Shown: positions 1,995 to 20,928, numbered from the stretch's first letter. The stretch: DNA of 21,274 nt from an uncultured archaeon (GCA_964525635.1 CAZGJX010000078.1:242-21515), one strand, 5' to 3'. The notes: a model not told the origin generated them from the letters alone. Numbers and translations are program-made.

Positions 1995-4175
1995 ATGGAT
2001 TTGAGTGTAAAAAGGAATAATGATTTTCAAGGAGAAAGATTAATTAAATCATCTGATAATCTCTTATCTATTAATTGTGAAAAATGTAAAAATTTAGAAA
2101 AAGATATCTATAAAGACAACTGTATTTCTTGCGTATCAGAGTTTTTATACAAAAACCAAAAGAGAAAAATATATTCAATTCAATTGGAAACATTCAATTC
2201 TATTGTAAATAAAAATAAAATCTCTTTCTTTCTTGAATATCATGATTTTTTAGAAAGAATAAAAAAAATTTTAAAAAAAATTAGAAATCAAAGAAATAAA
2301 TGTTATTATAATGATTTAAAATGTCCAATCTTTTCAGAAGCATTACACAATTTAAATAAAAAGATAGATTTATACAATCCAATTTCATTTTACAAATTAA
2401 TAAGAGATTATAATTCAAATTTAATTAATATCAAAACTAAAAATCAATGTTTAAAGTGTTTTTTAAAGATATCTGAAAATCTAAAGTATTTAAACAGTAT
2501 TCTATCTAACCTAAGAATTATAAATAAATATAATAACTTCAATAAGAAGAGAGATTTATTTAAAAATTATTCTAATTTTTATGAGTATTTCTTCTCAGAT
2601 ATATTTATTTCAAAAGAAAAAAAACCTATTTTTTTGACAAATATATTGAAAAAATGGAAATTAATTAAAAGTTATGATATTGAAAAATATAATTTATATA
2701 GATGTGATATCTTTAAGATTAAAAATGAAGTAGAAAATATCTATACAATAAAAATCTTTTTTGAGAAATCTTCCAAGAATGACTTCTATAATGGAATTCT
2801 TAATGATACTTATAATCATTTACGTTTAGCAAACATAAATCAGATTATTTCTATTGAGAAATTAATAGATTTTTATCATAATGAAGCAGTAAAATTCATT
2901 GATCAAAAATATAGATTGTCAAATATAAATAAGCATAGTATTGGATTATTGGTTGCAATTAAAATAATAAATTTAGAAAAAATCTTTCCATTATTGATTG
3001 ACGATTATATTGAAGAAATATTTTTAGATTCTCCTCTTGAGAAGATTTATATTAATCATCAAAAATTCGGTCGATGTAGAACATTAATTACACTTAAAGT
3101 TCAAGAAATAGAGCGATTAAAAACATTATTTAGACTTTATAGTGGCCAAAGACTTGATCACTCAAATCCAAGTATAAAATTGGTAATTAAAAATAAATTT
3201 TTTTATTGTAGATTTGCAGTTGATATCAAACCAATTAATTTTCAAGACTTTTCATTGGATATAAGAAAATTAAATAAAAATATCTTTACAATTCAAGATT
3301 TATTAAAAAATAATACTTTAAATCCAAAAATGACCGCCTTTTTATATTTATGTATATTAAAACAGGTTAATATCACAGTCACAGGTACAACAGATTCAGG
3401 TAAGACAACTTTAATTAATGCATTAGATCTTTTGGCACCTAAAGAATTTAGAAAAATATATGTTGAAAATGTCGTTGAATCTCTTGATGAAATTGAGTTT
3501 GGAAAACATCAATTGAAATATAAAGTAGATTCCTCAGAAGATTTAGTTAAATCAATCAATACAAAAAGTGGGCTAATAAAAAAATTATTACATAGAACAC
3601 CTGATTTAATTTATTTAGGGGAAATATTGACTGAAGAAGAATCAAAAGCAATGTTTCATTGTTTAGCTGCGGGATTAAAAGGTTTTCAAACAATTCATGC
3701 TAATGACATTGATTCATTGATAAATAGATTTATCTATCATTTTCAGATTAATAAAGTGTGTCTAAATGATTTGGATCTGATAATACTTATGAAAAAAAAT
3801 AGAAATAATAGTCGAAAGGTGTTTTCAATCAATGAAATTGTTCTAAATGATGGTAAAGTTACTTTTTATCCTATTTTTCAATTTAATCCTAAAAGAAATG
3901 ACTGGGATCAATTAAAATCTTTATATTCGACTAAAATAATTAAAAAATTAGCTAAATTTGAGTATCAAAATAAAGAGGATTTTGAATGTTTAATTGAAAT
4001 ATATACTAAAATATTTAGCTTTTTAGGGAATGAAAAAAAATTCAGGAATGTAAAATTAATCAAATTCTTTGATAAAATATCTTATATCTCATATGATTCT
4101 ACTTCTCATCTAGAAGAATACTTACATAAAATGCTATCTTCTCAGAAAAATATGACTCCCGTTAGAAATAAATAA
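1995..4175 (+). CDS. Type IV pilus/type II-IV secretion ATPase (VirB11/CpaF/TadA/ArlI family) with a Cys-rich N-terminal extension
   Basis: PLLIDDYIEEIF motif, SLDIRK, Walker A GTTDSGKTT, Asp-box-like YVENVVE, Walker B region PDLIYLGE, His box TIHA..IDSLINR. The N-terminus has CEKC, CISC, C-x6-C and CLKC. Confidence 0.9.
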   Translation: MDLSVKRNNDFQGERLIKSSDNLLSINCEKCKNLEKDIYKDNCISCVSEFLYKNQKRKIYSIQLETFNSIVNKNKISFFLEYHDFLERIKKILKKIRNQRNKCYYNDLKCPIFSEALHNLNKKIDLYNPISFYKLIRDYNSNLINIKTKNQCLKCFLKISENLKYLNSILSNLRIINKYNNFNKKRDLFKNYSNFYEYFFSDIFISKEKKPIFLTNILKKWKLIKSYDIEKYNLYRCDIFKIKNEVENIYTIKIFFEKSSKNDFYNGILNDTYNHLRLANINQIISIEKLIDFYHNEAVKFIDQKYRLSNINKHSIGLLVAIKIINLEKIFPLLIDDYIEEIFLDSPLEKIYINHQKFGRCRTLITLKVQEIERLKTLFRLYSGQRLDHSNPSIKLVIKNKFFYCRFAVDIKPINFQDFSLDIRKLNKNIFTIQDLLKNNTLNPKMTAFLYLCILKQVNITVTGTTDSGKTTLINALDLLAPKEFRKIYVENVVESLDEIEFGKHQLKYKVDSSEDLVKSINTKSGLIKKLLHRTPDLIYLGEILTEEESKAMFHCLAAGLKGFQTIHANDIDSLINRFIYHFQINKVCLNDLDLIILMKKNRNNSRKVFSINEIVLNDGKVTFYPIFQFNPKRNDWDQLKSLYSTKIIKKLAKFEYQNKEDFECLIEIYTKIFSFLGNEKKFRNVKLIKFFDKISYISYDSTSHLEEYLHKMLSSQKNMTPVRNK

Positions 4176-4494
4176 GTATTGAAGAACTAAAATTTTGATA
4201 ATTTATCATAGATATGCAAACCTAAAGGATTTCTTCTAAAAAAAAAGGATTATTATTTGTGATTATTAGATTCAGATTAACTTGGATTTCAAAATCTTTT
4301 TTTAGAGAAATTTAAATTTCCTTTCAAATCAATCTACTAAAATTGAGGATTATAATTAAATTCTTCACTAAAATTTATTTTTAGACCGATAGTTAAGAGA
4401 TTAGAAAACTCTAAGAAAACTTACTTCCTTAGAAGCAGTAATTATAAATTTAAAATAACTTGGGATTTTTAATCTTTAACATATATTTATTGTT

Positions 4495-4914
4495 ATGACA
4501 AATTTAGTTGAAAAATTATTAATCACAGGTTTTGGAATCTTTATTTTAATCTCGTTTCTATTTATTATATCGCCTTTCACAGATTTAATTAATGAATATG
4601 ATGATTCTCATGAAAAACTTGATAAAATATTAACAAACATTAATGATATAGATCAATCTATTGAATATATTTCAATCTATCATAACGAATCATATTTTAA
4701 AGAAATAGAAACATATACTAACTTTAATATAACTATTATGGAATACAAGATTCAGTATAATTTTATATTGAATCAAGAATGGAGATGTGTATTTTCTAAT
4801 TATAAAATTAGATTAAGTATCAATAATTTTCAATTAATTTCTGAAAAAAAATATCTTCTTAATCTTTCATATAAGGATTCTCTGATAGATATTAATTTTA
4901 TTCTCATAGAGTGA
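4495..4914 (+). CDS. Small protein with an N-terminal hydrophobic helix; candidate pilin/minor pilin-like subunit
   Basis: MTNLVE-KLLITGFGIFILISFLFII: an early Glu plus hydrophobic helix, then an amphipathic helix and a beta-rich C-terminus. Lies between the ATPase and platform genes, 4 nt upstream of the latter. Confidence 0.5.
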   Translation: MTNLVEKLLITGFGIFILISFLFIISPFTDLINEYDDSHEKLDKILTNINDIDQSIEYISIYHNESYFKEIETYTNFNITIMEYKIQYNFILNQEWRCVFSNYKIRLSINNFQLISEKKYLLNLSYKDSLIDINFILIE

Positions 4915-4918
4915 TAAT

Positions 4919-6451
4919 ATGACATTTACTTCACTTTATCTAAAATTTTGTAGACACTTTAACTCACAAAAGTTACCTAAAATACAATTTAAAGAGTTAA
5001 ATACACATTATAAGAAATTATATAATCATAAATATAAGATTAATGATGATAATATAAATAAGGCTTCTTTTACAATTTGTATATTGATATTTACATTCAT
5101 CTTTGTTTTTTCATTTTTATTTCTAAAATTACATATTTTAATCATTACATTTTATTCAATTATTATTTCTTTAATTATAACCTATAATTTTAATTTATTT
5201 TTATATAAAAAAATAAAGAAAGCAGAAAAAATCTTAAATTCATTATTATATTTTATTAAAATAGATTTTTCTCTAATTCAAAAAACAGGAAAATCTTATA
5301 CAGATAACTGTTTAAATTTTATTAATTTAATGATAAATTATAATATAAGTATTTCAAAAGAATTTAAGAAAATCCTATCAAAGATACATTGTGGATATTT
5401 ACCTGAATTAGAATTAAATAATTATATCTATCCTTCTAAAGATTTTATTGATTATATAAATAATTTACTAATAAATGATTTTCAATCAGAATATGATTCA
5501 AATGAATATTTATCTCATACATTAGAAGAAAATTTTAAAGTCTATTTAAAACAGATAAGCACAAAACTAAGTATTATCTTTTTTGTGGGTATTTTTTTTC
5601 CTATTGGATTTTGTTTTTTACTTTTGTTATTATCCTTAAATAAAATCATAATTATTATCTTTGTTCCTATACTAATTCTATTATTAAATTATTTATTCAA
5701 AAAATTCATAGATATCAATCATTACCTAGTTGGTTTTATTAAAAGTGATTCAAATCTTGAAAAAAAGAAACTTGATGAATTCTTAGTTCTAATAGAAAGT
5801 TTTGCTTTTAATCTTAAAAAAAATATTTCTCCTGAACAAGCTTTCATTAAAGCATATATTAAAGAAAGAGAACATATTCCAATTTTATATGAATTATTAG
5901 AATATGAAATTAGTTTTTTCTTAAATGGTCTTTATAATTTTACTGAAATATTACAAACTTTTAAAAAAAAATTAAAATCTTATAGGTATATCACTATTAT
6001 AAATTCAATCATTAATATGCTAAAAGAAAATGCTTATCTCAGTTCAAATAAAATAATAGAAATTGTCAAGGTTTTAAATAAACATAAAAAACTAGAAAAA
6101 AAATTAGATATAATAATTAAAGGTGAAAAATTTAAAGTATTTCTATTTTTATTTATACTCCCAATTACTACAGGAACAATAGGAGCATTATTACCCTTTC
6201 TACCTGAAATTTCTCAATCTCTATTATTTTTAGATCATATAAATGATCCGATTCTATTTCTGAAATCCTTAGATATTATTGATCTTTTCTTAATTTTATT
6301 TATACTTCTAATCAGCAATATAATTTCTTCATATTATTTTTTAAAAATTATAAGTTTTCATTATAAATCCTTTTTATTAATAATTTCTGGAACAATATTC
6401 TTATTAACTTTTTCTCTTTCGATTTTAAATATAGCTAATTTTATTATATGA
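4919..6451 (+). CDS. Polytopic membrane platform protein, TadB/TadC/GspF (T2SSF, ArlJ-like) type
   Basis: Repeated pattern of TM pairs alternating with helical cytoplasmic domains. The segment 'EFLVLIESFAFNLKKNISPEQAF' resembles the T2SSF domain start. Next to a CpaF-type ATPase. Confidence 0.75.
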   Translation: MTFTSLYLKFCRHFNSQKLPKIQFKELNTHYKKLYNHKYKINDDNINKASFTICILIFTFIFVFSFLFLKLHILIITFYSIIISLIITYNFNLFLYKKIKKAEKILNSLLYFIKIDFSLIQKTGKSYTDNCLNFINLMINYNISISKEFKKILSKIHCGYLPELELNNYIYPSKDFIDYINNLLINDFQSEYDSNEYLSHTLEENFKVYLKQISTKLSIIFFVGIFFPIGFCFLLLLLSLNKIIIIIFVPILILLLNYLFKKFIDINHYLVGFIKSDSNLEKKKLDEFLVLIESFAFNLKKNISPEQAFIKAYIKEREHIPILYELLEYEISFFLNGLYNFTEILQTFKKKLKSYRYITIINSIINMLKENAYLSSNKIIEIVKVLNKHKKLEKKLDIIIKGEKFKVFLFLFILPITTGTIGALLPFLPEISQSLLFLDHINDPILFLKSLDIIDLFLILFILLISNIISSYYFLKIISFHYKSFLLIISGTIFLLTFSLSILNIANFII

Positions 6452-6455
6452 GATT

Positions 6456-6752
6456 TTAAGAAAAAAAAATGAGATAAACTAATTGAATTAACAATATTAA
6501 TCCTATAAAAATGTATATTGAAAAACAAGTATAATAGATAATATTATATATCTCTAAATAAATTTGTAGTTCTAGTATGAATAATCTAAAATTCTCAAAA
6601 ATAAGCAATAAAGGTATTAATAAGATTAAATAAATAGAACAACAGATCATTGTGTTTAAAAAATCAGAGGAAATTAATGAATATGCAAAAATAAGGATAC
6701 TCGTTGAAATAACAAGAAAAATTTCTAAAATAAATAAATCGAACTGAATCAT
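6456..6752 (-). CDS. Small hypothetical membrane protein (~3 TM helices)
   Basis: 98-aa highly hydrophobic ORF filling the gap, convergent on the platform gene. Confidence 0.55.
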   Translation of the reverse strand: MIQFDLFILEIFLVISTSILIFAYSLISSDFLNTMICCSIYLILLIPLLLIFENFRLFILELQIYLEIYNIIYYTCFSIYIFIGLILLIQLVYLIFFS

Positions 6753-6912
6753 TCATATTAACTTTAGTAGATTTCTATATAAATACCATTATTTTTATGA
6801 AAGAAATTGAAAAATTAATATTCATTAATAATTTATATTTACAAATATTTATTATTCTGAATTTATTATTGATAAATTAGGAATTTAAGGTCTTTATACT
6901 AAAGAGAGAATC

Positions 6913-7401
6913 ATGAAAAATTTTAAATTAAAAGGTTTGAAATATAAAAAAGGAAAGTATGATTTATATAATGATAGATTTGTTTTTTTCCCACCAAAAC
7001 TAATAGATATTTTATCTTCTATTTATGGAGAAGGAGCAAAATCATTATTGGTATGGTTAGGTAAGAAAGCGGGGTGGACATTAATTCAAAATTGGGATGA
7101 TGTTTTAACACCAAAAACCGTAGAAGATTTGGTTAATCAATTTACAGAACTATTAAGTAATTTAGGATGGGGAAAATTTACAGTAAGAAATCTTTCTGAA
7201 GATTCTATCACGATTAGACTTCAACATAATATATCCTCTGAATTAGAAAGTGAATCAAAGTATATATGTTATTTTATTACGGGAATTCTAACGGGATTGG
7301 GAGAATTTACCTTATATAGAGTAAATACAACTGAAACTAATTGCTGCTTTGAAGGTGGTAAGAGTAAATTATGTGAATTTAAAATCACTAAATTATCTTA
7401 A
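6913..7401 (+). CDS. V4R (4-vinyl reductase) domain protein, Bet3/TRAPP-related fold
   Basis: LLVWLGKKAG, LGWGKF, CYFITGILTG, ETNCCFEG..LCEFKI: the Cys/Gly pattern of V4R domains. Confidence 0.85.
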   Translation: MKNFKLKGLKYKKGKYDLYNDRFVFFPPKLIDILSSIYGEGAKSLLVWLGKKAGWTLIQNWDDVLTPKTVEDLVNQFTELLSNLGWGKFTVRNLSEDSITIRLQHNISSELESESKYICYFITGILTGLGEFTLYRVNTTETNCCFEGGKSKLCEFKITKLS

Positions 7402-7409
7402 TTATAGAA

Positions 7410-7781
7410 TTACCAGGGGTCCCAATCTTTTGGATTTAAATCATCTTCTTCAGTATTTTCATACGTTTTTTTATTAGATTTTGAATTGAAATATGAACCA
7501 GCATCACTATCTTGATTACTATTCAAAGTCAGATTAAACTGATCTTCTGCAACACCTGAAAGTTCTCCTATGACAACATCTTTAAAAGCAGAAATTAGAG
7601 AAAGAAAGTTGAAAAATTCTTCTTTATTCATCTCCACCTCTGTTTTTTCTCCCTCATTCATAATAGCAAACTTAACAAGTCTAACTTCTCCACTTATTTC
7701 AACTGAAGTTAATTGAATTATGTGATTTTCTTTTTTTAATTGGATTTTCCAAGAAGTCTCTCTTTTTTTTTCAATCTCCAT
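7410..7781 (-). CDS. Hypothetical protein; putative PC4/PUR-like beta4-alpha domain with an acidic tail
   Basis: Four beta-like segments, then helix NKEEFFNFLSLISAFKDVV, then a low-complexity acidic tail ending EEDDLNPKDWDPW. The fold is inferred. Confidence 0.6.
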   Translation of the reverse strand: MEIEKKRETSWKIQLKKENHIIQLTSVEISGEVRLVKFAIMNEGEKTEVEMNKEEFFNFLSLISAFKDVVIGELSGVAEDQFNLTLNSNQDSDAGSYFNSKSNKKTYENTEEDDLNPKDWDPW

Positions 7782-7954
7782 TAAAGAATCACATTATATA
7801 ATAAATAAAAATCTATTAATTAAAAGAAAATTATTAAATTTAAAATTTTATTTCTCTTTATACTATTAAAAAAAAAAAAAAATTAAAAAAATTAGATTTA
7901 AATTAAAATCAATTGAAGAAATAGATTAATTGACTTCTAAGTATCTTACTCTTT

Positions 7955-8272
7955 TTATAATATTTTTTCAAGGAAAAAATCCTGAATAAAATTAGTTAAT
8001 TTATCGTCTCTGATAATTTTCTGTAAAAAAGAATTAATATCTTTTATATTTAATTCCTCTATCAATTTGCTGAGGATGTCTTGAATGGGCTTATTTTCAT
8101 AAAATCTTTTATTAAAAGATATTTTTTGACCAACTAGACCTTGGAAATTTGAATTATTAAGAATTAAATTAAATTTATTAAATATTAATTCGTATTCCTT
8201 ATCATCTAAATTAATATCTCTAAAAAAATCCAGTGATTTTCTTAGATCTTCCTTCTTAATCATATCATTCAT
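7955..8272 (-). CDS. Hypothetical protein (105 aa, helical)
   Basis: Codirectional ORF 49 nt downstream of the peptidase. No recognisable motif. Confidence 0.6.
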   Translation of the reverse strand: MNDMIKKEDLRKSLDFFRDINLDDKEYELIFNKFNLILNNSNFQGLVGQKISFNKRFYENKPIQDILSKLIEELNIKDINSFLQKIIRDDKLTNFIQDFFLEKIL

Positions 8273-8321
8273 TTAGTTATATTTGATTGAATTGATTAAA
8301 TATATATTTAAAGAAAAATAT

Positions 8322-8981
8322 TTAAAATCCCCCAAAAAAAAGCATAGTAATATATACAATAGTAATGATAAATATTAAGGGTGGACGATTATGAATTAAT
8401 AATTGGATCTTTTTTTCTTTTGATTTATGTATAGAAGAATTTAGAAGAAATTTTTCTATTTTTAATAAACTATTAAATTGGTAAAACGCTTTTAGGAAAA
8501 GTCTTCTTAAAATTGTATTTTTGGATAATTTACTAATGAATTCATCAAAAAAAAAACCCTTTCCTGATATATTATCAACAAGGAATTGGAATAAAAAGTA
8601 TAGAATAAAACCTAATGAAAATAATAAATAGAAGAGAGAGATATGTAAAAACTTTAGATATTTTAAAGGATGAATTAAAAAAATAATGATAATTACTTTT
8701 CCATCGGCACCTCCAATGATTTTAAAAATAAATAGGAAAAATGATATAAAAAAAACGACTATTAAAACCAATAATTTAATTCCTAAGAAATGAAATAAGT
8801 TATTATTTAAAAAAAAAAAAAATTCAAAAAATAGTGTAAAAATAGCTATAGTGATAAATATTTTAAATATTTTCAAGGATACGGTTCTATTTTTTAAATC
8901 AAAAAAAGAACTAATTATTAATATTAAGATTATTATCCCAAAATTAAATGAACATATTAGAATTTTTATAGATTCTCCCAT
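8322..8981 (-). CDS. Prepilin/prearchaellin peptidase (A24, PibD/ArlK-like GxGD-type aspartic protease)
   Basis: Both catalytic Asp motifs are present: SFFDLKNRTV and IIGGADGK. Multiple TM segments; C-terminal PLIFIIT motif. Confidence 0.9.
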   Translation of the reverse strand: MGESIKILICSFNFGIIILILIISSFFDLKNRTVSLKIFKIFITIAIFTLFFEFFFFLNNNLFHFLGIKLLVLIVVFFISFFLFIFKIIGGADGKVIIIIFLIHPLKYLKFLHISLFYLLFSLGFILYFLFQFLVDNISGKGFFFDEFISKLSKNTILRRLFLKAFYQFNSLLKIEKFLLNSSIHKSKEKKIQLLIHNRPPLIFIITIVYITMLFFGGF

Positions 8982-9256
8982 ATTTTTATAAATTTTTTTA
9001 AATATCTTGCTTTAATATTCTCCGATTTATATCGGTAGATTTTAATTCGCCCAAAAATCTTTTCTTGCACTAAATTAACTAATTTTAAATAATTTAAATG
9101 TTTTAGAACAATTTTATGATTTAATCTTGTCCTTTTTATTATTGAAGAAATATTTAATTCATTATATCTCGCTAAGAGCTTTAATATTTTTATTCTAGCT
9201 CGTGATCCTAATAAATCTTCGATTCGATTTACATTAATGATATTACTTTCATTCAT
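8966..9256 (-). CDS. ArsR-like winged helix-turn-helix protein
   Basis: LLGSRARIKILKLL...ELNISSIIKRTRLNHKIVLKHLNYLKLVNLVQEKIFGRIKIYR. Its start overlaps the cdc6 stop (ATGA). Confidence 0.88.
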   Translation of the reverse strand: MNESNIINVNRIEDLLGSRARIKILKLLARYNELNISSIIKRTRLNHKIVLKHLNYLKLVNLVQEKIFGRIKIYRYKSENIKARYLKKFIKIWENL

Positions 9257-10458
9257 ATATATATTCCTTTAGTTTCTAATTTATGAAGAATTAAATTTTC
9301 CAGTCTTTTCAATGGTATATCTAGGATTTTGATATATGATTTTCTTCCTTGTATATTTCTACTTTTTAATTTTATTAATACAAGACCATCTTTTCTGAAT
9401 TCATTTAAGTAATTCCATAATTGAGAATAAGATTTCGGTTTGTTTTTAATATTTTCACATATTATATGATATTGTTCCAGAGTTTCAGAAAGAGAAACAG
9501 CTGTTTTTTTTGTTTTTTTTAGTGAAATTGTGATTGACAACAAGAAAAGTAACCTTTCATATTTCAAATATTTTAATATATCATGAATTGAATATGGTAA
9601 TGATTCTTGATTAGCTAATCTTAAGCATTCTGTTGAAATGTAATTTAAATCTTTATTTTCTGCTATTTTGCAAGCTTTCCACAAAATAGTAAGACCATAA
9701 CGAATATCTCCTTTAGTATAAGTAATTTCAGATAACATTTTGATTACATCATCAGATATAGAATTACTTTTTAAACTTAATTTTATTCTATATTTTAAAA
9801 TATCAAAAATCTGTTCTATAGAATATGTATTAAATTTGATTATATTATTTTGCAGCGTACTAATAGTACTTGAATCTAAATTATTTAAACAGGATAGGTC
9901 TCTTACTATTCCAATTAACGATATTCGTTGAGGGCTATTAAAAGAATCATCATAAATTCTTGTTAAAGAGTAGATTAGATCTTTATCATTCTCTATTAAA
10001 TAATTTAATTCATCCAATACCAATAAAACATGCATATCTTCATTTTGAAGTGATTTTATAATAAATTCCAAGAGATCTTGTGGTGAATAGCCTCTTTTAG
10101 GAAAATCTTGTTGAATATCTCTTACAATGTTAATTAAAACCTTATAACTAGTTCTTTCTTTTCTGCAATTTATATGAATATATTTAATACTAATCTCTCT
10201 CTTTTGACCAACTTTGTGCAACATATCTCCAAAAATTTTAACTGTGGCTGTTTTTCCAATTCCCGTATTTCCTGTTATTAATATTTTTCTTGATGTTGAA
10301 TTTGGATTTGTAATTAAGGATAAAAAAAGTTGAGATAATAGTGATAATTCTTTTTCCCGATGTGGTAATTTATCTGGAATATAATTTATATCCAATGTAT
10401 TTTCTGCCTTAAATAAAGTCTCTTTTTTTAGAAAGTTTTCAAAATAATTAGTTACCAT
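9253..10458 (-). CDS. cdc6: Orc1/Cdc6 replication initiator AAA+ ATPase
   Basis: YIPDKLPHREKE, Walker A GNTGIGKT, HINC, Walker B LVLDE, GDIRYGL sensor-2 region, C-terminal winged helix. Confidence 0.95.
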   Translation of the reverse strand: MVTNYFENFLKKETLFKAENTLDINYIPDKLPHREKELSLLSQLFLSLITNPNSTSRKILITGNTGIGKTATVKIFGDMLHKVGQKREISIKYIHINCRKERTSYKVLINIVRDIQQDFPKRGYSPQDLLEFIIKSLQNEDMHVLLVLDELNYLIENDKDLIYSLTRIYDDSFNSPQRISLIGIVRDLSCLNNLDSSTISTLQNNIIKFNTYSIEQIFDILKYRIKLSLKSNSISDDVIKMLSEITYTKGDIRYGLTILWKACKIAENKDLNYISTECLRLANQESLPYSIHDILKYLKYERLLFLLSITISLKKTKKTAVSLSETLEQYHIICENIKNKPKSYSQLWNYLNEFRKDGLVLIKLKSRNIQGRKSYIKILDIPLKRLENLILHKLETKGIYI

Positions 10459-12335: not shown

Positions 12336-13022
12336 CTATTTATCTAGATCCTTAGAAAATTTTGTATATTCATCACCTATGGGGGCACCACCATTTCCAT
12401 ATATTTGATATAAAACGGTTCTTCTTGCACATTCACTGAAACTTCTATAAACGTCTTTCTTTTTTTCCCATAATGCACATGTTTTATAAATGATTGGATT
12501 CCAAATATAAAGTTCATTATCTGGTTCATACCATAATTTTTCATCCTTCAAAATTTGTTTAAAGTCTTCCTCTGCTATTACTTCTGTCAAATCCTGTTTA
12601 TTTAACATAATAATTAAAGGAATTTCTTTGACTAATTTACCTCTAGTAACGTTTTTTAACTCTTTTAATGATTCTATGTTATCCTCAAAAAAATGGGTTT
12701 GTGAATCAACAGTAAAAATAACTCCATCTGTTCCTTTAAAAATTTTCTTTCTCAATGGAGAAAATCTGCTTTGACCCGCAACAGTATAAACATGATAAAA
12801 AACTTTTCTCTGTTTTGTAGATTGGAAAATACCTCTATCAAAATATAAAGTAGAACCACTTGCCATTGAAATCTTTGTTAAATTTCCTGTAGGTTTAATA
12901 TCTTGTTCTGTTTCATTAGTTAATCTATATAAAGTGTCAACTACTGTAGTTTTACCAGATCCTCCCATCCCCCAATATAGAATTTTTATATAGACTTTAT
13001 GATCTGCTGTAAAACGAACCAC
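12336..13022 (-). CDS. Small GTPase, MglA/Arf-like (Ras superfamily)
   Basis: G1 GMGGSGKTT, TLYFD switch I, G3 TVAGQ (MglA-type, non-DxxG), DGVIFTVDS, G4 NKQD, G5 CA. GTG start. Confidence 0.9.
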   Translation of the reverse strand: MVRFTADHKVYIKILYWGMGGSGKTTVVDTLYRLTNETEQDIKPTGNLTKISMASGSTLYFDRGIFQSTKQRKVFYHVYTVAGQSRFSPLRKKIFKGTDGVIFTVDSQTHFFEDNIESLKELKNVTRGKLVKEIPLIIMLNKQDLTEVIAEEDFKQILKDEKLWYEPDNELYIWNPIIYKTCALWEKKKDVYRSFSECARRTVLYQIYGNGGAPIGDEYTKFSKDLDK

Positions 13023-13609: not shown

Positions 13610-14629
13610 ATGAGACAAATGAACATACATCAAGAATATAGTCAGGAATGTCCTGAATGTGGTGGATTTATTATATATACTAACTCTGAGAAGATTTGCA
13701 AAGAATGTGGCTTAGTTATGGATACACTCTTTAAAAACTCATCTTATAGTTTTAAAGATTCTTATAATAATAATCATCTATGTAAACAATATGTTGCCCT
13801 AGGAGATAGAACGGATTATATTGGGGGATTAGGATCATATATTGGATATGAAAATTCGAAATATCTAAAAGATAATTCTGGAAAATTATTATCTCCTAAT
13901 GAACAACGACTCTATCGTAGATTAAAAAAAAATTATTCTCAATTTTTGAGGATTAAGAATCATGAGACAGAGTATCGGATTTTTAATATTCTAAATAAAA
14001 TAACACTTTATTTAAACCTAAATAAAAATATAAAACATAATGCTGCGTATTATTACAAAAAAATTCTTAAAAATGAAAAAAAAATTATCAATAATATATC
14101 CTTAATAGCATTTTGTATTTTCTTTGCAGCAAGAAAAGAAAATCATAATGCTCCAATTACAATAAAGGAGATTTCTAATATCTTTCAAAAATTCGGTCAT
14201 AGAGTGAATCCAAGGCTTATTTTAAGGGATGGTTTAAAATATAAAAAATATTTAATGGTTAATGTAAAACCACATAAAAGTGAAGATTATCTTAATAGAT
14301 TAATGACTCAAGTAATGAATCATGATGATCTACACGAAAGATTAATAAAAAAAGATATAGATTGGACAAAAGAAGAGTTTCAGAATAAATTAATAAAAAA
14401 ATCACTTGAAATTATGAAAAAATTAACATCCTGGGAACGAGGTGGGAGAAATCCATTTATATTAACTGGGGCAATAATATATTTAGCAGATAAGCTAATG
14501 ACAAAAGAATATGGAAAGAAACCAATATTAACACAGAAATTAATCTCTGAAGCAACAAATATAGCCGAATATTCTATTCGAGATCACTATGTAAATTTAT
14601 TAAAACCTTTATTTATGCAAGTGAAATAG
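13610..14629 (+). CDS. tfb: Divergent transcription initiation factor B (TFB/TFIIB) paralogue
   Basis: Zn ribbon CPECGG...ICKECGLV, two cyclin-like repeats, GRNP motif, C-terminal HTH TQKLISEATNIAEYSIRDHY. Confidence 0.85.
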   Translation: MRQMNIHQEYSQECPECGGFIIYTNSEKICKECGLVMDTLFKNSSYSFKDSYNNNHLCKQYVALGDRTDYIGGLGSYIGYENSKYLKDNSGKLLSPNEQRLYRRLKKNYSQFLRIKNHETEYRIFNILNKITLYLNLNKNIKHNAAYYYKKILKNEKKIINNISLIAFCIFFAARKENHNAPITIKEISNIFQKFGHRVNPRLILRDGLKYKKYLMVNVKPHKSEDYLNRLMTQVMNHDDLHERLIKKDIDWTKEEFQNKLIKKSLEIMKKLTSWERGGRNPFILTGAIIYLADKLMTKEYGKKPILTQKLISEATNIAEYSIRDHYVNLLKPLFMQVK

Positions 14630-16847: not shown

Positions 16848-16953
16848 GCTTCTGTAGTGTAGTTCGGTCAATCTTAAAATTATACTTCAAATTAAGGATT
16901 ATGCATATGAGGCTCTCACCCTCGTGACCCGGGTTCAAATCCCGGCAGAAGCA
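16848..16953 (+). tRNA. tRNA-Glu (anticodon CTC) with a 31-nt intron at non-canonical position 21/22 (16872-16902)
   Basis: Acceptor stem GCTTCTG/CAGAAGC, T arm CCGGG-TTCAAAT-CCCGG, anticodon arm TGAGG-CTCTCAC-CCTCG. Removing 16872-16902 restores the D arm (GTGT/GCAT) and gives 75 nt. No encoded CCA; a T-tract follows. Confidence 0.95.
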
Positions 16954-18426: not shown

Positions 18427-19023
18427 TTAATATTTTATAATAATATTTGGGAATAAAGAATTAATAATCAATTTAAATGATTCTACAATGCCAAATCCAT
18501 TGATGGCGATAGTTTCTTTGATAAATACTTTATAAAATTTCTTTAATTCTTCATAAGAGATAAAATCACTTTCTTTTATTTTTCTTACATTTGCTAAATC
18601 ATATTTATTTAAAGCAATTATTGTAGGTATTTTATAAATATCTTCTCCAAAAAAATGGTTTAACTCCTTCCAAGAGAATTTATTTCTATCTAAATATTCA
18701 AAATTTGAGTCTATTACAAATATAATTCCATCAGCTCCCTTTAAAGTGGCAGTTCTAGTACTTGCATAAAAATCTTGTCCCGTAGCGGAATAAATCAAAA
18801 ATTTTAAACTCCATTCCATCCCTTTAAACTCCAAAACACCAAAATCAAAAACCAATGTTCTACCTAATGAATTTTCTATAGACTTAAGTGTTTTAATTTT
18901 ATTATAATGTTTAAAAAGACTCTTTATTGATGTTGTTTTACCTGACATTGCTGGACCATAAAAGATTAGCTTAATTTGAATTATTTTTTTTTCAAAATCA
19001 AAAAGTATGATAATTACCCCCAT
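18427..19023 (-). CDS. MglA-like small GTPase
   Basis: IQIKLIFYGPAMSGKTT, RTLVFDF (MglA switch I with Arg), SATGQ.FY..TR...LKGADGIIFVIDS, NKYD, A.NG.GI. Confidence 0.92.
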   Translation of the reverse strand: MGVIIILFDFEKKIIQIKLIFYGPAMSGKTTSIKSLFKHYNKIKTLKSIENSLGRTLVFDFGVLEFKGMEWSLKFLIYSATGQDFYASTRTATLKGADGIIFVIDSNFEYLDRNKFSWKELNHFFGEDIYKIPTIIALNKYDLANVRKIKESDFISYEELKKFYKVFIKETIAINGFGIVESFKLIINSLFPNIIIKY

Positions 19024-19925
19024 AATGATTGGATTTTCTCTCCAATAAATGTTAATTTATTATTTTGAATTAATCTTGAAAAATCTTCTCTCCATTCATT
19101 CATAATAAAAGATAATATTCGTTTTATAGAACCATCTTCATAATCTATAGCTTCAAGTAATGTTTTACTTCCTATTTTTGAATTTATATTCATATTATGT
19201 AAAAAATTCAATTTAGATAAAATAAAAAATGCTCTTTTGGCACCCAAGTAAAAATTTTGAATTTCTTCTTGGAAAATATTTTTCTTTATCTCTCCTTTTT
19301 CAACCTCAAAATCTAATAATGTTTCTTTTAATTCATTATCTAATTGACTTTTATGTACTTCTTCAGAAATAACTCTTTTCATTTTATTTATTGACTTTTC
19401 TGTGTCTTCTGATATTTTTTGAAAAATTCTTTCTTCCATATCAAGATCTATTATTTTTTCATTAATTCCAACTATATTTACTCTTAATTTTTCAGAGTCA
19501 ATTGATATTTCAAGAAAACTATTTACCTTTGCTCTAATTAATTCTTTTATTAAATTTAAGAGTATTTTTTCTTTTTGAACTTCTATCCCAATAATCATAG
19601 AATCTAAAGAATCCAGTTCAGATATTGCTTTTATAGCTACATTAGATGGACATCGTATTTGAATTCGTATTGATTGATAATCATTGTTTTCATTTAAAAA
19701 TAAATTATTATATTCCGTATTTGAAATAAAATCAGTATAAAACACTAGGTCTTTTCTAAAATTAATAAGTCCTGACAATTCTATAATAAGTTCGTCAATA
19801 TAATTTGGATCTTCTCCATAGACAATGATAGGAATCCTATCTAAAAGACAATAAAGGACTAATGCTCTTTTCTTTTTTTTTATATTTTCGAGAGATCTAA
19901 ATATATTCATTTCTTTTCTCATCAT
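19014..19925 (-). CDS. Hypothetical protein with a cDENN-like alpha/beta core and helical C-terminus
   Basis: VLYCLLDRIPIIVYGEDPNYIDELIIELSGLI and the later MIIGI strand resemble the cDENN core pattern. Tightly coupled between the roadblock and GTPase genes. The CDS is secure; the DENN call is tentative. Confidence 0.55.
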   Translation of the reverse strand: MMRKEMNIFRSLENIKKKKRALVLYCLLDRIPIIVYGEDPNYIDELIIELSGLINFRKDLVFYTDFISNTEYNNLFLNENNDYQSIRIQIRCPSNVAIKAISELDSLDSMIIGIEVQKEKILLNLIKELIRAKVNSFLEISIDSEKLRVNIVGINEKIIDLDMEERIFQKISEDTEKSINKMKRVISEEVHKSQLDNELKETLLDFEVEKGEIKKNIFQEEIQNFYLGAKRAFFILSKLNFLHNMNINSKIGSKTLLEAIDYEDGSIKRILSFIMNEWREDFSRLIQNNKLTFIGEKIQSLWG

Positions 19926-19926
19926 T

Positions 19927-20928
19927 TTATTTTATTAATAACTCCCCTAAAAGACTTTTAATGTCAAATGATTTTCCTTTCTGTTCTTGATTTACTCTTT
20001 TCATAATCCTTTCAATTTTTCCTAAAAATTGGGGTATAATTAATCTTATCAAACCTAATTTTTGTTTAGATTTACCCATCTCTGAACATAAAATTGCATT
20101 ACTTAACCCATTAATAGTTTGAAAAGTATTTCCACAATCAATTAAAATATTTTCTGCAGTCATCTTCTTCAATAACCAAGCACATCTATTTGCTGTTTCG
20201 AATAAAGAATATGTCATTGCAGCTATATTATCTATATTGATATTATTCTCCAATGAATTTTTCAATTTTTTGGATAATATGAACCCTCCATCTAAACAGA
20301 GAAAAGTATATTTTAAATCTATAATTGTGAGAGTAAAATTATTCAATATTTTATTTAATTCCCAAGATAACTCTTCAGAGATATTTAATGAGGATGAAGA
20401 TAAATAAGTTTTTCTCTCATTTTCCTCTTTGAGATAAAAATTATCTAATACTTCATTAATTTTTTCATTGTTGAATTCAATTAATGGGGGTTTAAATGAT
20501 TCTCCCGAGGTAATTAATGTTGTTTTTATTTTTTTTAGACATTCATTTGTTTGAAGAAATATACCTCCTAAATTAACATAAGGTTGAGCAGTTATAGCTA
20601 TGAAAAACTCATTATGATCTTCAATAATTCCTTGTTGTTCTAATATTCGATTTAGAGACTCATGTATGGGAGTACTTAATGGTGCTATTAATATCTTTGC
20701 CTTCTTTCCTTCAATAAGAATATATTTTAAATCTTTTGGATATAAATTTATTCCAATGTTATAAATTGCACTCGCCGCGGAACATACGTTAAAGATCTCA
20801 TTTTTGGTTAGCCATACACCCGTTGATTGAATTGGATTACCATCTCTCTGAGTTAAAACTGCATTTTCAACACCTTTTAATTGCTTAATCTGATCTAGAT
20901 GAATTCTGATTTTCTCTTTAAGATTCAT
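19927..20928 (-). CDS. Tandem roadblock/LC7 (MglB/LAMTOR-like) double-domain protein
   Basis: Repeat 1: GVENAVLTQRDGNPIQS...CSAASAI...ILIEGKKAKILI...NLGGI. Repeat 2: DLKYTFLCLDGGFIL...IAAMTYSL...ILIDCG...KLGLIRL. Confidence 0.9.
   Translation of the reverse strand: MNLKEKIRIHLDQIKQLKGVENAVLTQRDGNPIQSTGVWLTKNEIFNVCSAASAIYNIGINLYPKDLKYILIEGKKAKILIAPLSTPIHESLNRILEQQGIIEDHNEFFIAITAQPYVNLGGIFLQTNECLKKIKTTLITSGESFKPPLIEFNNEKINEVLDNFYLKEENERKTYLSSSSLNISEELSWELNKILNNFTLTIIDLKYTFLCLDGGFILSKKLKNSLENNINIDNIAAMTYSLFETANRCAWLLKKMTAENILIDCGNTFQTINGLSNAILCSEMGKSKQKLGLIRLIIPQFLGKIERIMKRVNQEQKGKSFDIKSLLGELLIK

Follow-up and report, generated by a model that had tools for sequence, protein, structure and literature searches.

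A predicted Tad/Flp-like type IV filament system in Lokiarchaeia-type Asgard archaea, with a leaderless pilin-like protein and a short prepilin

An assembly ATPase, a membrane platform protein, and a prepilin peptidase encoded close to one another point to a type IV filament (T4F), and the question arises what such a machine would assemble if no canonical major pilin lies beside it. We addressed this question for a 21.3-kb stretch of DNA from an uncultured archaeon (GCA_964525635.1 CAZGJX010000078.1:242-21515; this whole stretch is hereinafter called the window). The initial annotation had described here an Asgard-type Tad/type IV filament system with an unusual ATPase and no canonical major pilin, consisting of genes for the ATPase, a 139-amino acid (aa) protein (hereinafter p139), and a 510-aa membrane protein on the plus strand, with an A24 family peptidase gene about 2 kb away on the minus strand. 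All four genes were found where they had been placed (Table 1), the peptidase gene starting 1.87 kb past the end of the platform gene, and their arrangement is not due to chance. We identified, in addition, a short Flp-like prepilin encoded on another contig of the same genome. From sequence comparison, the five genes (prepilin, peptidase, ATPase, p139, and platform) are predicted to constitute one T4F system. This system is a real but very divergent relative of the bacterial Tad and archaeal Epd pili, and the window probably encodes the motor and processing components of a Tad/Flp-Epd-type machine that has been vertically inherited in Lokiarchaeia-type Asgard archaea.

The source genome (4.45 Mb in 245 contigs) is 100% complete by marker genes and has a G+C content of 26.8%, with ~22% in the window. 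The gene content of the window is archaeal and Asgard-like (ribosomal proteins L3 and L4, Orc1/Cdc6, TFB, two Arf-family small GTPases, and a Roadblock protein), and the homologs of the ATPase and the platform protein that have a source name all come from metagenome-assembled genomes (MAGs) of Lokiarchaeota or Promethearchaeota. The gene neighborhood was compared across 79 related loci, all from Promethearchaeota MAGs, many of which end at contig ends. The gene order is nearly always identical in these loci (see Table 1 for the counts of each gene), so that the locus, embedded among housekeeping genes (L3/L4, Cdc6, and TFB) as the initial annotation had maintained, represents a stable core neighborhood rather than an island.

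The motor, platform, and peptidase

The ATPase matches the Pfam family T2SSE with 62.1 bits (cut-off 24.9; E = 4.8e-17). When a profile of 24 ATPase orthologs was compared with PDB sequences, it aligned through residues 223-643 with A. fulgidus GspE (2oap; E = 2.2e-31) and also matched FlaI (4ii7; E = 1e-24) and CpaF (E = 4e-10). By these alignments, residues ~223-643 are assigned to a full-length, two-domain secretion ATPase of the archaeal GspE/ArlI type; because the GspE match is confined to this region, residues 1-222 represent an added, lineage-specific extension, and residues ~644-726 form a C-terminal tail. Invariant in the 24 orthologs are the Walker A motif (G464..G469-K470-T471-T472), D537/E543, and H568; the Walker A, Walker B, Asp, and His boxes of the T4F-superfamily secretion ATPases are all present, and, as far as these motifs tell, the enzyme is shown to be catalytically intact. 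Orthologs were detected in all five further genomes of the class. In one relative locus (L122:3541-5695, minus strand), the ATPase is broken into two open reading frames (ORFs) of 586 and 111 aa, perhaps by a frameshift or stop codon or through misassembly; in the sister genome L124, it is intact (728 aa). The sole other T2SSE match above the Pfam cut-off in the source genome, on contig C108, is a PIN-domain PilT-like NTPase with no pilus neighbors and was discarded.

The feature that makes this ATPase unusual, as had been remarked initially, is the N-terminal extension of ~220 aa with its eight invariant cysteines (C28, C31, C43, C46, C103, C110, C152, and C155 in the 24 orthologs). ATPases of distant Asgard lineages share these cysteine clusters; one genus has lost the second. 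The domain probably binds two Zn ions or Fe-S clusters. An ESM Atlas search with residues 1-225 yielded scores of 0.80 and 0.75 to unnamed archaeal clusters and was uninformative. The Pfam accession PF27713.1 is precomputed on many ATPase homologs and is absent from the Pfam scan of the window ATPase.

The top NCBIfam model for the ATPase is ArlI/FlaI (NF058587; E = 5e-30), and p139 resembles ArlF and ArlG in its extracellular beta domain and its pilin-like N-terminus, which is not processed. Both observations would fit a degenerate or atypical archaellum core (ArlI/ArlJ) in which p139 is an ArlF/G-like stator. However, the NF058587 score is 104.7 bits against a cut-off of 550, and the ATPase is for this reason not an ArlI ortholog. 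A search of the whole genome yielded no archaellin (PF01917) match, a search of the window no ArlF/G/H, ArlC/D/E, ArlX, or archaellin family, and a search with p139 members no archaellin or ArlF/G family; the subunit associated with this machine is a 44-aa Flp-like peptide and not an archaellin. An archaellum remnant is thus barely credible, in agreement with the initial annotation, which had seen no obvious archaellum here.

The 510-aa protein has no Pfam or NCBIfam match of its own, and there is no match to PF00482 anywhere in the genome; the protein is evidently too divergent in sequence for detection with these collections. Its family shows 37-73% identity to the window protein among the 120 matches listed of 138; for these 120, every given source name is Asgard, and none carries a precomputed Pfam domain. 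A profile built from 32 family members (A1) reached relatives in 55 of the 151 sampled genomes of the phylum, with E-values from 1e-10 to 1e-25 outside the family of the window protein. Many of these relatives are two adjacent ORFs of 250-300 aa, one matching each half of the platform. Among the relatives that were fetched, two exceed the T2SSF cut-off of 25.2 bits, namely, a 275-aa protein (locus L085, 35.0 bits) and a 505-aa protein (L087, 29.9 bits). Within the class, ATPase-adjoining ORFs of 505 and 525 aa align to the platform over ~430 residues (E = 6e-12 and 5e-13) and span the whole T2SSF profile at sub-threshold scores. The T2SSF profile is touched directly by two of the 32 family members (best E = 3.8e-5).

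Comparison of the AlphaFold model of the platform (predicted local distance difference test score, pLDDT, 78.8) with 48,161 PDB chains using VIA-align gave PilC (2whn; Z = 9.4, 103/103 aligned, root-mean-square deviation [rmsd] 3.0), the PilC model 3jc8 (Z = 9.1), SpoIIIAB (8.2), EpsF (2vma; 7.7), and TcpE (4hhx; 7.5). These five are among the top eight matches, and all align to platform residues ~278-400, the alignments taking in entire domains. The profile bridge to relatives above the Pfam cut-off and the fold matches, taken together, establish the T2SSF assignment that the initial annotation had made. The profile matched in one of the five further genomes of the class, and a separate hidden Markov model (HMM) run detected the platform of locus L125 with E = 2.5e-22. 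A related genome contains a second platform copy (G001:C16:42463-44492; E = 1e-159) with a p139-like ORF just upstream, which indicates that the module can be duplicated.

The peptidase scores 25.0 bits against Peptidase_A24 by hmmscan (cut-off 26.5) and 26.9 bits in a six-frame search of the genome, where it is the sole A24 match; it also matches NCBIfam FlaK (E = 1.8e-4). The catalytic aspartates expected of a T4F peptidase are conserved, 37 of 39 orthologs keeping D28 and all 39 the motif G90-G91-x-D93-G-K95.

Two pilin-like proteins, one without a leader

The statement that the system has no canonical major pilin holds within the window and fails for the genome as a whole, where contig C92 encodes a conserved Flp-like prepilin. 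The search that revealed it, made with a p139 HMM against all 12,015 six-frame ORFs, gave one further match (E = 1.2e-4; 1.5e-5 with the HMM of the N-terminal part), a small ORF that reads …KDFLSDKYG-GNLVEYALLIGFALF…. The family members are 60-70 aa long, with a Lys-rich leader and ~44 aa after the Gly-Gly (start codons were chosen by hand), and were detected in 53 of the 61 sampled genomes of the class, including 37 of the 39 high-quality ones. In 14 aligned members, F17, D20, G23, G24, E28, Y29, L31, L32, G34, and F35 are invariant. The predicted processing site reads …G↓GNLVEY… in the source genome and [G/A]↓G-[N/S]-L-x-E-Y across the family, with A-G-S-L-L-E-Y in one genus. Cleavage after the small residue would leave G1 and E5-Y6, the arrangement of the Flp-type G↓xxxxEY site of the Tad literature. 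The predicted prepilin combines a class III signal peptide with a hydrophobic helix, as expected of a T4F subunit.

Flp_Fap is, of all Pfam families, the one with matches to the largest number of prepilin members (6 of 14, best E = 0.0019, below its cut-off). A search of 1.84 billion representative proteins with the prepilin profile yielded 58 matches at E <= 0.001, of which 57 were scanned, one of 36 aa being omitted. Flp_Fap was recognized in eight of these, four of them above its cut-off (81.4, 61.9, 57.6, and 49.9 bits), and the matches to Flp_Fap proteins center on the leader-to-EY region. Ten matches were looked up by their JGI names: two are called "Flp pilus assembly pilin Flp," one is hypothetical, and seven are unnamed. 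Comparison of the profile with NCBIfam produced nothing useful.

A regular expression for class III signal peptides ([KR][GA] followed by a hydrophobic stretch) gave 79 matches in the whole genome and missed the Flp-like prepilin, because that has neither K nor R at position -2. We inspected 18 matches with short leaders and set aside most of them as polytopic membrane proteins. The one good match is a 176-aa protein on contig C69 (…GNGKG↓LTI…; also L084:8156-8686, minus strand), which has a textbook archaeal class III signal peptide and a domain with N-glycosylation sequons, stands alone in its neighborhood, and has relatives in three other clusters only; it may be a second substrate of the peptidase.

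The connection between the prepilin and the machine comes from relatives. In 13 sampled genomes, prepilin and platform lie on one contig, 11-14 kb apart in 10 of them and 2.7 kb apart in three. In locus L123, the prepilin gene is 8.7 kb upstream of the ATPase, past L3/L4 and three other genes; in L122 and L124, it is divergent and ~90 bp from the ATPase start. In the sister family, which belongs to the same order, L125, from a complete single-contig genome, has the co-directional series prepilin, Cdc6, A24, ATPase, p139-like, and platform within 6.3 kb, where the HMM scores behind the A24 (E = 4e-4) and p139-like (E = 7e-5) assignments are weak, and in L126, Cdc6-ArsR-A24 is followed by the prepilin on the opposite strand and this by ATPase-p139-platform. 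In genome G054 (complete, single contig, same order), all five genes form one 6.3-kb cluster.

In the window, the pilin-like gene between ATPase and platform is that of p139. In 37 aligned orthologs, the protein starts with M-[T/S/P]-x-[L/I/M]-x-E-K (conserved N-terminus MTNLxEK), followed directly by the transmembrane (TM) helix; M1, E6, and K7 are invariant, and T2, L9, G12, F13, F21, and P27 are nearly so. The position that follows K7 is variable (A, S, G, T, I, V, or L), so that p139 has no class III cleavage site. The reading frame opens at most eight codons before this Met in most of 68 orthologs, with no earlier standard start, and no in-frame standard start codon precedes p139 in the window. 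Two conserved N-glycosylation sequons, NLN[IV]T and LLN[VI]S, place the C-terminal domain outside the cell. The AlphaFold model (pLDDT 91.2) consists of a helix (residues 2-62) followed by seven strands.

Alignment of p139 with the Flp-like family by hhalign (probability 94.9%, E = 4.3e-8) superimposes p139 residues 3-33 on prepilin residues 25-55. This register puts Met1 at the -1 position and Thr2 at the start of the mature pilin. The residue at position 2 (Thr, Ser, or Pro in the 37 orthologs; Ser or Gly in two p139-like ORFs of the sister family) is in each case one that permits removal of the Met by methionine aminopeptidase. Once the Met is removed, Glu would be at position 5, as in a processed pilin. 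By this alignment, p139 is a pilin-like protein without a leader, its start coinciding with that of the mature Flp-like peptide. Members of the p139 family have no family match, archaellin, ArlF/G, and TadE included, and profile A3 has no match among PDB sequences. VIA-align gave a best Z of 4.8, with the type IV pilins 8pfb_G and 6xxd_A at 4.7 and 4.2; the type IV pilin rows alone span both the helix and the sheet of p139. Foldseek against the PDB returned non-significant beta-sandwich rows (TM-score ~0.19, rmsd ~15 Å), which we regard as meaningless.

Could p139 then be the sole subunit of the fiber, that is, a leaderless major pilin, with the Flp-like protein an unrelated membrane peptide with a hydrophobic N-terminus? 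It is the sole pilin-like gene between ATPase and platform, in 68 of 79 loci, its E6 (E5 after Met removal) is invariant, its confident model has the shape of a lollipop, and the Flp-like profile also catches SecE. Yet several independent gene arrangements connect the Flp-like gene with the ATPase, the region of the prepilin leader and cleavage motif matches bona fide Flp_Fap proteins, and the conserved peptidase, predicted to be active, needs a substrate, which p139, lacking a leader, would not be. A fiber made of p139 only is therefore quite improbable in our assessment.

The machine most likely assembles a thin fiber of the Flp-like peptide. By analogy with TadE/TadF, p139 would most likely be a pilin-like subunit, whether minor, priming, or at the tip, with a glycosylated beta domain on display; a role as a membrane-anchored ArlF/G-like protein, again by analogy, is nearly as likely. 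In the mechanism that we propose, the peptidase would process the Flp-like prepilin behind the small residue so that the mature subunit has Glu at +5, the hexameric ATPase would dock on the cytoplasmic T2SSF domains of the platform, and ATP hydrolysis would lift processed subunits from the membrane into a thin helical fiber. Being made at the mature-pilin start, p139 would have no need of the peptidase. The eight-Cys domain might, speculatively, couple assembly to the redox or metal state. A version of this scheme in which the Flp-type pilus is inherited vertically across all Asgard archaea, the leaderless p139 primes or caps the fiber, and the ATPase is gated by an eight-Cys metal or Fe-S domain is possible and, as a whole, rather doubtful; it would provide these syntrophic relatives of eukaryotes with a dedicated organelle for attachment to partners.

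Genomic setting and the likely use of the predicted filament

Of the roles that the initial annotation had suggested (adhesion, cell contact with syntrophic partners, or DNA uptake), adhesion to surfaces or to syntrophic partners would be the likely use of the predicted filament. The setting of the locus also invites a different reading, namely, that there is no external pilus and that the machine builds a short, membrane-anchored pseudopilus or has another housekeeping role, be it protein export, the assembly of surface proteins akin to the Sulfolobus bindosome, or a function linked to transcription or replication, as has been suspected for the pilin-less subclade 4D systems. The system is near-universal and sits in a syntenic core beside Orc1/Cdc6, ribosomal protein genes, and a divergent TFB, and the peptidase seems to be co-transcribed with Cdc6 and ArsR. 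According to the available text of the respective paper, the 4D systems share with the present one a Cys-rich ATPase N-domain, a diverged TadC-like protein, and a TFIIB homolog (PMC4858521), and no pili are reported in the available part of a preprint on cultured Promethearchaeales strains (bioRxiv 10.1101/2025.02.26.640444). The description of 4D does not fit the present system, whose ATPase is full-length, whose platform has two domains, and which includes a dedicated peptidase and a conserved prepilin. Moreover, Flp-type subunits form fibers in known Tad systems, and thin fibers of 4-6 nm are easily overlooked by imaging. A role other than that of a pilus is, accordingly, unlikely.

Several observations weigh against the interpretation of the window as part of a Tad/Flp-Epd-like filament machine. 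For the platform, the Z-scores of 7.5-9.4 are below ~13, the range in which the tool warns of unspecific helical-bundle matches; Foldseek with the whole model found nothing in the PDB at E <= 0.001, the A1 profile had no match among PDB sequences, and hhalign of the two halves of the platform revealed no internal duplication (probability 1.7%). The pilin fold matches of p139 tie with coiled-coil noise. All members of the Flp-like family score below the Flp_Fap cut-off (32.2 bits); one match of the prepilin profile is a SecE above its own cut-off, so that the profile lacks full specificity in its TM part, and it had no match among PDB sequences or, by tblastn, plasmids. Because the prepilin lies on another contig in the assembly that contains the window, its linkage here is deduced from relatives. 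There is no RNA run among the 24 sequencing runs that contain the window DNA. Finally, surface filaments on the protrusions of Hodarchaeales are presented, in the available part of the preprint, as a major difference from two cultured Promethearchaeales strains (Imachi et al. 2025, bioRxiv 10.1101/2025.02.26.640444), a contrast that implies that pili are not documented there for cultured Lokiarchaeia. With these points taken into account, we still consider the filament machine the probable reading.

Table 1. Features of the window and related features elsewhere, with the number of the 79 related loci in which each gene is kept (coordinates refer to the window unless a contig or locus is given)
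Feature	Coordinates	Strand	Description	Loci (of 79)
Assembly ATPase	1995-4175	+	726 aa; Pfam T2SSE	72
Intergenic spacer, ATPase-p139	4176-4494	.	319 bp, AT-rich; unusually long for this operon	
p139	4495-4914	+	139 aa; bitopic, one N-terminal TM helix, predicted extracellular beta domain	68
Platform protein	4919-6451	+	510 aa; polytopic membrane protein, fused two-domain T2SSF	
tm98	6456-6752	-	98-aa small membrane protein; convergent with the platform gene	14
V4R-domain protein	6913-7401	+	weak V4R matches, Pfam E = 1.1e-4	72
p123	within 6913-7781		acidic, 123 aa; follows the V4R-domain protein	71
Prepilin peptidase	8322-8981	-	class III signal (prepilin) peptidase, family A24; 219 aa, without methyltransferase domain	62
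ArsR-family regulator	8966-9256	-	Pfam HTH_5	65
Orc1/Cdc6	9253-10458	-	Pfam Cdc6 domains	66
Ribosomal protein L3				63
Ribosomal protein L4				62
Arf-family GTPases (two), 303-aa protein, 333-aa Roadblock/LC7 protein	12336-13022 and 18427-20928	-		52 and 51 (GTPases); 38 (303-aa protein); 3 (Roadblock/LC7)
Divergent TFB paralog	13610-14629	+	339 aa; one weak TFIIB repeat (E = 3.5e-7), weak Zn ribbon	56
tRNA	16848-16953	+	Rfam, 52.5 bits	
Flp-like prepilin (predicted)	G000:C92:2328-2579	-	same genome, other contig	
176-aa protein	G000:C69:13155-13685	-	same genome, other contig	

The peptidase and ArsR gene ends overlap by 16 nt, and those of ArsR and Orc1/Cdc6 by 4 nt; from these overlaps, ArsR and Orc1/Cdc6 appear to be co-transcribed with the peptidase. 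The order Cdc6-(ArsR)-A24 directly precedes the ATPase in L125 and L126. Orc1/Cdc6, ArsR, and the prepilin peptidase also remain grouped in genomes of families f1 and f2, the latter being the sister family. The spacer between ATPase and p139 contains no plus-strand ORF of at least 30 aa and no repeats; in relatives, this junction is a 16-bp gap (L123) or an overlap (L126). The tm98 gene was detected by tblastn in just 14 loci, yet an ORF of 98-100 aa adjoins the platform gene in L122, L123, L124, and L126.

Among the other genes, the TFB paralog is 9.4 kb from the ATPase gene and outside the operon. Arf-family GTPases and Roadblock/LC7 proteins are typical Asgard eukaryotic-signature genes; the low count of the Roadblock/LC7 protein is largely due to flanks that stop short of the gene. 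The tRNA detected with Rfam covers 106 nt for a model of 71 positions and so presumably contains an intron; ARAGORN found no tRNA in the window.

Comparison with known type IV filament systems

In culture, Loki-type Asgard archaea are found attached to syntrophic partners, and the mechanism of this contact is central to models of the origin of eukaryotes. The system described here is a concrete, nearly universal five-gene candidate for a thin adhesion fiber in Lokiarchaeia. Standard annotation overlooks two of the five genes, those for the platform and for the prepilin of 60-70 aa. The system has two oddities, the leaderless pilin-like subunit and the Cys-rich motor domain, and it is relevant to the proposal that the bacterial Tad pilus originated in archaea.

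We found no description of this operon in the literature on type IV pili, prepilin peptidase, and Flp/Tad in Asgard archaea or Lokiarchaeia. A survey of archaeal T4F (PLoS Genet 2026, PMC13705601) reports ATPase, platform, pilins, and peptidase in 677 Asgard genomes; in its main text, the Asgard core components are rarely neighbors and are scattered, the type of the system is mostly ambiguous, and the word "Flp" is absent. Unlike in that picture, ATPase, p139, and platform are adjacent here, although the supplementary tables of the survey may list these genes. Because the platform escapes standard profiles, Asgard T4F genes probably went unlinked in the survey, as far as its main text tells, and the oversight of both platform and prepilin by standard annotation probably accounts for the scattered and ambiguous picture.

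The initial annotation had pointed out that its reading would be undermined if the ATPase grouped with an already characterized system whose pilins are encoded elsewhere. The pilin is indeed encoded elsewhere, but by the NCBIfam comparison the ATPase groups with no characterized system. The initial reading of a Tad-like T4F system of Asgard type is supported, and the relation of the system to each of the known ones can be specified.

With the archaellum core (ArlI/ArlJ and ArlF/ArlG), the system shares the ATPase and platform superfamilies and a small bitopic protein with an unprocessed pilin-like N-terminus. It differs from the archaellum by the lack of an archaellin in the genome and of ArlH/C/D/E/X in the window, and by the ArlI equivalog score far below the cut-off.

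Makarova, Koonin and Albers (2016, PMC4858521) described subclade 4D, found in Thermoproteales, as pilin-less and of unknown function; its ATPase has a Cys-rich N-domain and is accompanied by a TFIIB homolog and a diverged TadC-like protein. The window system is similar in that the ATPase N-domain contains conserved cysteines, the membrane partner is highly diverged, and a TFB gene is nearby. In the available text, 4D has two components, an ATPase without the C-terminal domain and a partner with 4-5 TM segments, plus a TFIIB homolog in the operon (PMC4858521). By this description, the present system is set apart by its full-length ATPase, two T2SSF domains, pilin-like gene, prepilin, and peptidase, and by a TFB gene outside the operon. 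The resemblance to 4D, judged by description, is partial.

The archaeal Epd pilus of Methanococcus maripaludis, or "T4F system 1," when compared by description, likewise has a short pilin, a dedicated class III peptidase, and an ATPase-platform pair. The +1 residue of the prepilin here is Gly, unlike in the EppA substrates, which have Gln at this position. The platform differs as well, being fused here and encoded in Epd and Tad, according to the available text, by two genes with one T2SSF domain each (PMC6668835).

The bacterial Tad/Flp (type IVc) system is resembled in having a very short candidate major pilin with a charged leader and a site of the G↓xxxxEY type, a peptidase without a methyltransferase domain, an adjoining ATPase and T2SSF platform, and a larger pilin-like accessory protein. 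Unlike in Tad, where TadB and TadC contain one T2SSF domain each, the platform of the window lineage is the product of one fused gene; the ATPase is closer to archaeal GspE and FlaI (E = 2e-31 and 1e-24) than to CpaF (E = 4e-10) and has the eight-Cys N-domain, and p139 lacks both a leader and a TadE Pfam match. No ParA/MinD-like (TadZ/CpaE) or secretin family was found among the 23 ORFs of the window, a genome-wide search for TadZ not having been made. As in Tad, the platform is split into two genes in other Asgard lineages (L085, L089, and L090), and L090 also has a ParA/MinD-like ATPase. Denise et al. (2019, PMC6668835) trace Tad back to archaeal systems of the Epd kind, in which the pilins are short, the platform is split, and a TadZ-like ATPase is present; the term "Asgard" is absent from the available text of that paper. 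The versions from Asgard lineages other than Loki combine a split platform, a ParA-like ATPase, and adjacent Cys-rich ATPases. If they also carry a G↓xxxxEY pilin, they would be the closest archaeal counterparts of bacterial Tad, which would place the archaeal donor of Tad near Asgard archaea.

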